From Isosphaeraceae bacterium (GTDB lineage: Bacteria; Planctomycetota; Planctomycetia; Isosphaerales; Isosphaeraceae): a stretch of DNA of 28,129 bases. The number at the start of each line of letters is the position of its first letter. Positions within the stretch are counted from its first letter, which is position 1. Made by a program: the position numbers and the translations under genes. A model generated the notes under the pieces. It was not told the DNA's origin. It worked only from the letters and a program-made list of their open reading frames with translations, and ran no database searches. Of the stretch, positions 25,034 to 25,588 are shown in pieces. The stretch covers positions 1 to 28,129 of the forward strand of contig JBILGL010000001.1 in the NCBI GenBank assembly GCA_044351075.1, read 5' to 3'.

Positions 25034-25588
25034 TTACCTGCACCGACTTCGCTGGAATTCCTCGAAAATCATGGCCCGGGCCCGGGCTGGTTCATCCAGC
25101 CGCCAAGGGCCACGTTTTCGGTCAAAATCTTGCAATCGACGTCGATCGGTGCGTGAAATGGCCGCTTTTACACGATCAACAGCGGCCGGCTCGCAATCGG
25201 CCAGAGCCATCGCCCAGGCTTCGGCCATTCCCAAGTCAAAGCTGGCCTGAATCGCCGCTTTTGGCCACTGGGTCGGGTCGGCCGGCGGCTCTGGCAAGAC
25301 TTCCGCCTGATTTCTTTGGTTGATTTTCTCAGCCGATTGCTCGCGGCTTGAAACGGGCTGGCGGCTGGCCATCTGGCGGCGAAAATCAACTAAGGCAGCC
25401 TGCTGTTCTGCCGCATCGATTTCGCGAAGATTCGCTACGGCCTCAGTAATGGCCTCTGCCTGCTGGGGAGACATCCGCTTGAGTAGTGCCGCTGCCTCAG
25501 TGTCATCAAGGCTCACCAGCACAAGCGCCGCACGCTTGAGCGCATTTGAAGCTGTTTCCGCATTTTTTTGGCCGTCTTTTGTTGTCAT
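25034..25588 (-). CDS. fliG: Short FliG-like protein (FliG N-terminal domain joined to the C-terminal tip, middle domain absent)
   Basis: KRAALVLVSLDDTEAAALLKRMSPQQAEAITEAVANL...ALVDF matches FliG_N; AWAMALADC...ISRT...RGPWRLDE...ARAMI matches the FliG C-terminus (ALKG...SQRAA...GPVRL); directly downstream of the fliF-like gene; only 184 aa. Confidence 0.72.
   Translation of the reverse strand: MTTKDGQKNAETASNALKRAALVLVSLDDTEAAALLKRMSPQQAEAITEAVANLREIDAAEQQAALVDFRRQMASRQPVSSREQSAEKINQRNQAEVLPEPPADPTQWPKAAIQASFDLGMAEAWAMALADCEPAAVDRVKAAISRTDRRRLQDFDRKRGPWRLDEPARARAMIFEEFQRSRCR

Follow-up and report, generated by a model that had tools for sequence, protein, structure and literature searches.

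A half-size FliG without the middle domain, encoded next to FliF in the aflagellate Isosphaeraceae

FliG is the rotor hub that joins the membrane–supramembrane (MS) ring, the switch complex and the stators. Here, we examined a 28,129-nucleotide (nt) stretch of DNA from Isosphaeraceae bacterium (Planctomycetota; GenBank assembly GCA_044351075.1, contig JBILGL010000001.1, positions 1 to 28,129; hereafter the window), which carries on its reverse strand (25034..25588) an intact open reading frame (ORF) for a FliG of only 184 amino acids (aa) plus stop. This protein, termed mini-FliG, is a half-size FliG that consists of FliG_N and FliG_CC. We propose, with a probability of about 0.7, that mini-FliG docks on FliF and, without receiving torque, caps or stabilises a stripped-down flagellar export core that lacks its ATPase and has a role outside motility.

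Domain architecture and the FliF partner

An earlier note, made by reading the sequence by eye, had described the gene product as a 184-aa FliG with FliG_N and a C-terminal part, but without the middle domain, and this description was borne out by Pfam, AlphaFold2 and Foldseek. Pfam assigned FliG_N (PF14842) to residues 17–86 (E = 1.5e-11, 45.3 bits, cut-off 25) and FliG_C (PF01706) to residues 111–179 (27.6 bits, cut-off 23.3; profile positions 30–98 of 108). The middle domain FliG_M (PF14841) yielded a sub-threshold signal only (residues 20–59, 18.6 bits vs a cut-off of 25), which is a cross-match of the armadillo (ARM) repeat in the N domain. FliG_M was absent from the linker, and no match to it fell within residues 70–117, where the earlier note had held that one would speak against its proposal; the EHPQ motif, also reported there as missing, is indeed absent from the whole mini-FliG sequence. 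Mini-FliG scored 21.6 bits against a cut-off of 226.7 for the full-length FliG equivalog TIGR00207, and by its features as a whole it falls outside the class of working motor FliGs. A family profile searched against the PDB sequences aligned the N part with residues 9 to ~65 of Salmonella FliG (PDB 8umd/8umx) and, without any gap, the C part with residues 235–322, that is, from the MFXF hinge onward. Neither in this alignment nor in that to planctomycete motor FliGs did ARM_C (FliG_CN) or helix MC have a counterpart in mini-FliG, the gap in both cases running from about residue 65 to the MFXF position of canonical FliG. Judging from these alignments, some 165 canonical residues comprising the end of FliG_N, FliG_M with its EHPQR, helix MC and ARM_C are without counterpart. 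Since FliG_M/EHPQR, helix MC and ARM_C are gone, mini-FliG lacks the canonical FliM site as well as the ARM_M–ARM_C stacking for ring polymerisation.

The AlphaFold2 model, built on a 22-sequence alignment, reached a mean predicted local distance difference test (pLDDT) score of 86 and resolved three parts. The N domain (residues 5–75; 25364..25576, reverse strand; pLDDT ~90) folds as a four-helix FliG_N ARM and is the presumed dock for the FliF tail. It is followed by a Pro/Gln-rich linker (residues 76–105; 25274..25363, reverse strand) with pLDDT of 52–70; this low-confidence stretch comprises about 30 aa instead of the ~45 aa estimated by eye. The C domain (residues 106–184; 25037..25273, reverse strand), modelled at pLDDT ~95 over residues 106–183, is a six-helix FliG_CC with a degenerate torque helix. 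Foldseek superimposed the C domain on FliG_C of 8ucs_H with a root-mean-square deviation of 1.9 Å over 76 columns and on that of 1qc7 with 2.0–2.2 Å, and for the N domain retrieved the FliG_N chains of co-folded FliF:FliG structures (5wuj_B, 1.8 Å over 61 columns; also 5tdy). The RGP[VWF]R turn and the (W)ALAL helix of FliG are retained, and the C domain contains two genus-invariant motifs, IQASF and DRxRGPWRLDEP.

Upstream of mini-fliG, after a spacer of 41 nt (25589..25629, reverse strand) in which the sequence reads GGAG 8 nt before the mini-fliG ATG, lies a fliF-like MS-ring gene (25630..27162, reverse strand). Its 510-aa product carries a YscJ_FliF domain (residues 81–238, Pfam E = 5.7e-10) and two transmembrane helices, and the gene is the sole YscJ_FliF gene in its own genome. 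In each of the 13 loci inspected, mini-fliG is immediately preceded by a fliF gene, including those in which none of the remaining neighbours is shared. The C-terminal helix of FliF (residues 485–497; 25672..25710, reverse strand; AADVLSEWI) is the presumed FliG_N-binding peptide: A488, V491, L492 and W495 (AxxVLxxW) are invariant in 12 FliF tails that are otherwise poorly conserved. In canonical FliF, the peptide that binds FliG is known to occupy this position, as in the solved complexes 5tdy and 5wuj, and we assign the terminal helix accordingly. Structure prediction for FliF 441–510 together with mini-FliG 1–95, a check that the earlier note had recommended, gave a score of 0.44 compared to 0.17 for the best control, on a scale where 58 of 80 solved complexes, but also 2 of 110 mismatches, attain the mark and where passes at or below 0.60 rate as weak and unreliable. 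At least 60% of contacts were common to the runs, and the pLDDT of the partner was ~50. Because FliF_C:FliG_N is a solved textbook pair, such a prediction demonstrates likeness rather than binding; it lends weak support to a docking of mini-FliG on the FliF tail.

Conservation, selection and origin

The source of the window is a fragmented metagenome-assembled genome (MAG; 690 contigs, 85% complete), as might be expected if mini-fliG were in truth an ordinary fliG of 330 aa that had been misassembled or miscalled. This explanation is already refuted. Near-identical DNA occurs in 12 lake-water metagenome runs, besides two marked as possible sources, and contigs from two other lake metagenomes cover mini-fliG with 0–1 differences and no indels, one of them spanning the whole gene and the end of fliF. 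The same length and architecture were encountered in closed genomes, for instance in the one-contig genome G032 and in Singulisphaera sp. GP187. Six clusters of close homologues range from 178 to 187 aa, and further short forms were found by exhaustive profile search. A search seeded with the mini-FliG of another Isosphaeraceae genome (G027) returned 952 clusters of 91–291 aa (E <= 1e-5), among them proteins of Singulisphaera sp. GP187 and PoT that bear the name FliG and proteins of MAGs designated 'Isosphaeraceae bacterium', names that assign the family to Isosphaeraceae. In whole-genome searches, 34 of 36 Isosphaeraceae genomes from 30 genera contained one mini-fliG locus each, with open frames of mostly ~150–240 aa. 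A second, canonical FliG was found neither in the genome of origin nor among the Isosphaeraceae genomes searched. The orthologue comparison that the earlier note had called for recovered the same short architecture of ~165–200 aa in 34 of 36 genomes, and there was no sign of the assembly error that it had named as an objection.

Mini-FliG is under purifying selection. Pairwise ratios of nonsynonymous to synonymous substitution (dN/dS) were 0.13 (dS 0.08) and 0.22 (dS 0.69); for the comparison with the nearest species, the overall value was 0.10. Resolved by part, dN/dS amounted to 0.045 for the N domain and 0.09 for the C domain, while the linker, which is poorly conserved and variable in length, was essentially unconstrained. 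These values bear on the assumption that mini-FliG is a functionless relic, i.e., a FliG decaying after flagellum loss. Most of the flagellar regulon is gone in Isosphaeraceae, the torque residues drift, FlhB has lost its NPTH motif (see below), and non-functional flagellar remnants have been reported from other lineages (PMC12199754). A relic would, however, hardly keep an intact frame in 34 of 36 genomes and 30 genera at dN/dS of 0.10–0.22, with much tighter constraint on both folded domains than on the linker; moreover, the fliF–fliG pair survives several rearrangements, and the conservation of FlhA and FliP nearly equals that seen in relatives with flagella. The selection data hence disfavour the relic, which we consider improbable. 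Short contigs of a relative with 94–97% identity from riverine metatranscriptome libraries cover parts of fliG and fliF; since carry-over of DNA is possible, we did not count them as expression.

Two sub-forms of mini-FliG can be distinguished. In most genera, the N domain directly joins RRLRFVFEDL, an MFXF-like hinge, while the genus studied here has the Pro-rich linker instead. Some flagellated planctomycete families possess two FliG genes (genomes G053 and G043): the first encodes a motor-type FliG of ~335 aa with all torque charges and lies away from fliF, the second a divergent paralogue of 356–380 aa without torque charges, which in G053 is located inside the main flagellar cluster (6219–7358 of G053:C1:5660000-5672000). 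In both domains, the Singulisphaera mini-FliG resembles the motor type more than the divergent paralogue of flagellated planctomycetes, and for this form an origin from the divergent 'operon' paralogue was rejected. The C domain of the genus studied here is too diverged to discriminate between the two origins. An internal deletion in an ancestral, fliF-adjacent motor fliG would be the simplest history compatible with these sequences.

Torque ridge and flagellar gene content

In E. coli FliG, R281, D288, D289 and R297 form the MotA-interacting ridge. Profile alignment placed A130 of mini-FliG at K264 (E. coli numbering), T147 at R281, D154 at D288, F155 at D289 and R163 at R297. Three of the five torque charges are lost and the equivalents of D288 and R297 are kept, just as the earlier by-eye alignment to E. 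coli had suggested (Thr for R281, Phe for D289, D288 and R297 retained). Of 22 mini-FliGs, 21 have Ala at K264; the positions of R281, D288 and D289 are occupied by seven to nine different residues each, and only R297, situated within the GP[WF]R turn, is kept. Conservation of the ridge positions is lacking even within the genus. In the motor-type FliGs of four flagellated planctomycetes, by comparison, all five positions are charged, following the pattern K/R/E/(E or N)/(R or K), and the same four proteins keep EHPQT and RRLMFVF.

We compared the flagellar gene content of 36 Isosphaeraceae genomes with that of 24 genomes from other families of the same class; because the genome containing the window is 85% complete and its absences are weak alone, absences in the family rest on the 36-genome sample. 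Flagellin scored over the cut-off in none of the 36 Isosphaeraceae (one sub-threshold match) vs 17 of the 24 other genomes. Likewise, true FliG_M occurred in 0/36, canonical FliG (defined by FliG_M over the cut-off) being present in 20/24; the weak FliG_M matches in Isosphaeraceae all lie on the N-domain ARM (profile positions 16–56). The rod domain Flg_bb_rod was found in 0/36 vs 17/24, the latter with four to nine copies each, and FliI, scored with the FliI/YscN subfamily model, exceeded the cut-off in 0/36 vs 18/24. The best FliI match of the genome studied here turned out to be the beta subunit of the F1 ATPase, AtpD. FliE was absent from all five genomes searched for it (four Isosphaeraceae genomes and the genome of origin). 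FliM and MotA_N, searched in the genome of origin only, gave no match there, nor did rod proteins or flagellin. Described Isosphaeraceae all lack motile swarmer cells and possess few flagellar assembly genes (PMC5352709).

With these data at hand, it can be asked whether mini-FliG might still receive torque, as a rotor protein either in a cryptic flagellum or in some different rotary machine with non-canonical (ExbB/TolQ-type) stators. The MotA-contacting FliG_CC is retained, its fold is near that of MotAB-bound FliG_C (8ucs_H, 1.9 Å), and equivalents of D288 and R297 exist. Yet the ridge is not conserved among close relatives, MotA_N is without match in the genome of origin, rod, hook, FliE and filament that could transmit rotation were not found, ARM_M and ARM_C, which mediate FliG ring polymerisation and FliM coupling, are missing, and cultured Isosphaeraceae are non-motile (PMC5352709). 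Torque generation by mini-FliG is very unlikely, because the ridge varies freely, the ARM_M/ARM_C and FliM-binding modules are gone and the searches for stator, rod and filament genes gave no match; a rotor of any kind is, in our estimation, even less credible than a relic. In the earlier note it had been conjectured that mini-FliG can co-fold with the FliF tail but probably cannot bind FliM or take up stator torque normally; this picture is supported by the invariant FliF helix, the fliF–fliG pairing, the variable ridge and the absent motor genes.

In contrast to the motor genes, those of the export gate persist. FliP was detected in 32 of 36 Isosphaeraceae (21/24 in other families) and FlhA in 34 of 36, with ~720–795 bits where intact (21/24 in other families, 14 of those with 790–860 bits); the conservation of FlhA thus comes close to that in the majority of flagellated relatives. 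FlgM was present in all five Isosphaeraceae genomes searched. In the genome studied here, fliO-P-Q-R-flhB are located on contig C281 and flhA, followed by a gene for an FlhF-like GTPase, on contig C152. These gate genes are of the flagellar type: FliO is present, and FlhF and FliA/FlgM are linked to the set. The FlhB homologue (369 aa; C281 3025–4134, forward strand) lacks the NPTH autocleavage motif, the equivalent stretch, read by eye without alignment, being GTTM. Substrate-specificity switching in the manner of Salmonella is therefore unlikely, and the loss of NPTH shows that the gate is at the least specialised. A further contig, C26, encodes a 393-aa protein (3059–4240, forward strand) with an SctQ/FliN (SpoA) domain at its C-terminus only, and a 420-aa protein (1800–3062, forward strand) without Pfam or NCBIfam match, the stop of which overlaps the start of the SctQ-like gene; a FliM/SctQ-N partner that has diverged strongly is one possible identity of the 420-aa protein. 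There is a single copy of the SctQ/FliN-like (FliMN_C) gene, and one third of the Isosphaeraceae genomes, several of them of high quality, including the closed G032, gave no match to it.

As a side observation, FlhA is split into two to five adjacent pieces in four few-contig genomes with completeness scores of 61–80% (G009, G020, G035 and G017). The pattern points to indel errors of long-read sequencing and not to pseudogenes, and such error may account for the low completeness of these genomes. In other families, four genomes (G037, G039, G052 and G058) are without flagellin and rod genes while FliP and FlhA are kept, some of them together with a full-length FliG or FliI, which suggests independent and differently graded flagellum reductions.

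The order of genes around the pair was informative as well. In the complete genome G032, fliF and mini-fliG are followed by a small FliG_C-only ORF, fliO, fliP, fliQ, fliR and xseB. The window contains fliF and fliG followed by xseB (24600..24929, reverse strand; Pfam Exonuc_VII_S), which serves as the downstream synteny marker. It follows that this is the same operon, from which fliOPQR have moved away (to contig C281) in this genus. In a more distant relative, only the fliF–fliG pair is still together. The small FliG_C-like ORF (~105–120 aa; Pfam FliG_C E = 1.1e-7) slightly overlaps the 3′ side of mini-fliG in other Isosphaeraceae genera, where it represents a stand-alone domain (reverse strand; 9356–9715 of the G032:C1 locus and ~9594–9900 of the G027:C5 locus); tblastn revealed no homologue below E ~1 in the 85% complete genome of origin. 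Also within the window are a fliA/whiG-type sigma-28 gene (9193..9981, reverse strand; TIGR02479, 259 bits, cut-off 189.6) and, directly upstream of it, a gene for a MinD/ParA-like ATPase (10328..11461, reverse strand), which matches Pfam ParA/CbiA/AAA_31, remains below the cut-off of the NCBIfam MinD models and is, by its position, a candidate FlhG. A genome-wide scan for sigma-28 promoters (TAAA-N14-16-GCCGATAA) returned three exact matches vs ~1.7 expected by our own estimate, and nothing convincing upstream of fliF. Sigma-70 promoter and terminator counts over 24400–27500 were at shuffle level. Elsewhere in the window, an AT-rich 510-aa ORF (18628–20160, reverse strand) without significant Pfam match lies in surroundings of ~41–47% GC vs ~55%, and a low-GC island (36–43%) at 5000–8000 contains a 338-aa ORF without family matches and a DUF1559/N-methyl (planctomycete pilin-like) protein at 6610–7686.

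Possible role and known systems

Taken together, we favour the following model. Mini-FliG would be co-transcribed with fliF and would bind, one to one, the AxxVLxxW helix of the cytoplasmic FliF tail, where it would stabilise the MS ring as a cap that does not rotate. The ring, in turn, may house a flagellar-type gate that apparently comes without its ATPase and consists of FliOPQR, FlhB lacking NPTH and FlhA, and that could be positioned and regulated by FlhF, the MinD-like ATPase, FliA and FlgM. Conceivable functions of such a core are the export of FlgM to control FliA, or periplasmic export driven by the proton-motive force without FliI. The 'static ring' that the earlier note had envisaged for mini-FliG is supported by these data. 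Because the whole family is aflagellate, such a ring would be part of a reduced export apparatus and not a crippled motor.

Several points weigh against this model. The production of mini-FliG and its binding to FliF are predictions from sequence and models. Were stabilisation of FliF its sole task, the N domain would be enough, yet the C domain is just as strongly conserved (dN/dS of 0.09), so that the C domain must have another partner or function. The missing NPTH of FlhB and the absence of FliI from all 36 genomes could instead mean that the gate is crippled. Furthermore, since several genomes of high quality, G032 included, are without the SctQ/FliN-like protein, no conserved C-ring partner is evident. 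Finally, absences in the genome of origin, being 85% complete, are weak by themselves.

The constraint on the C domain could be explained if mini-FliG were mainly an adaptor, with the C domain re-used as a dock for a new partner that links the MS ring to regulation such as the FlgM/FliA checkpoint or polar positioning. Candidate partners include the FliG_C-only small protein, the SctQ/FliN-like protein, FlhA_C, FlhF and the MinD-like ATPase. Apart from the strong constraint itself and the genus-invariant IQASF and DRxRGPWRLDEP, an adaptor would be consistent with the second stand-alone FliG_C-like ORF after mini-fliG in G032 and G027, with the retention of FlgM, FliA, FlhF and a MinD-like gene, and with the observation that in Campylobacter jejuni the MS ring, FliG and the type III secretion system (T3SS) constitute a signalling checkpoint (PMC3760246). 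On the other hand, the tblastn search for the FliG_C-only ORF in the genome of origin (85% complete) found nothing, and the SctQ-like gene is not universal among Isosphaeraceae. We rate the adaptor as a serious possibility, albeit one with odds clearly below even, and retain the FliF-docked cap as the preferred role.

With canonical FliG (331 aa in Salmonella/E. coli; Thermotoga maritima; 8umd, 1lkv, 3hjl), mini-FliG shares the N domain, the six-helix C domain and the position of its gene directly after fliF, but it is ~165 residues shorter and comes without detected stator, FliM, rod, hook and filament genes. The FliF–FliG fusion of Chlamydiaceae (Bergeron 2016, PeerJ, PMC4768692) likewise stems from a non-flagellated lineage of the Planctomycetes–Verrucomicrobia–Chlamydiae group, with few flagellar genes and a FliG fragment kept together with FliF. 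Chlamydia, however, keeps the FliG M domain fused to a shortened FliF, whereas mini-FliG is a separate protein without M domain, accompanied by a nearly full-length FliF (510 aa) and a full FliOPQR–FlhB–FlhA gate. The nearest functional analogues of the natural mini-FliG are engineered FliG variants of C. jejuni without middle domain, without C-terminal domain, or with the N domain only. In this organism, FliF and FliG are stable only in each other's presence, and of the FliG domains it is the N domain that is essential (PMC3760246); FliG lacking the middle and/or C-terminal domain was stable, FliF was stable as well, and the MS-ring/T3SS signalling checkpoint was supported (Boll and Hendrixson 2013, PMC3760246). 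Those constructs are laboratory-made, reside in a flagellated host, and none of them has the N + CC architecture.

Among reduced export apparatuses of the Lysobacter/Buchnera type, non-flagellated Lysobacter enzymogenes OH11 keeps FlhA, FlhB and FliPQR as an expressed, working exporter of non-flagellar proteins (PMC7688988); a remodelled FliG is not among the topics of that study. Isosphaeraceae share FliPQR, FlhB, FlhA and FliF without filament with such systems, but have not retained FliI and rod/hook-type substrates (FliI 0/36, rod 0/36, FliE 0/5); in Lysobacter, FliI is present and needed for secretion and the hook-cap protein FlgD is kept (PMC7688988). For an injectisome, i.e., a non-flagellar T3SS, an SctN ATPase would be expected, and none was detected in the 36 genomes. 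A description of the N + CC FliG architecture was not found in the literature searched, the coverage of which is incomplete.

The Isosphaeraceae set, by which we mean FliF, mini-FliG, FliOPQR, a non-cleaving FlhB, FlhA, FlhF, the MinD-like ATPase, FliA and FlgM, with ATPase, rod, hook, filament and stator genes undetected, might even be a working minimal flagellar-type secretion machine that runs on the proton-motive force alone, exports, for example, FlgM to the large planctomycete periplasm and thereby switches the sigma-28 regulon, with mini-FliG as its only cytoplasmic ring component. We put this forward as a speculation, with a somewhat lower chance of being correct than the adaptor. The system is testable, for members of Singulisphaera, Paludisphaera and Isosphaera have been cultured. 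The database name 'flagellar motor switch protein FliG' wrongly implies motility when applied to mini-FliGs. A natural FliG with only the FliF-docking and the stator-facing domain offers a ready-made dissection of those FliG functions that are independent of rotation, and the Isosphaeraceae core would constitute a natural model of ATPase-less and rod-less type III export that bears on how secretion-only systems arise from flagella.

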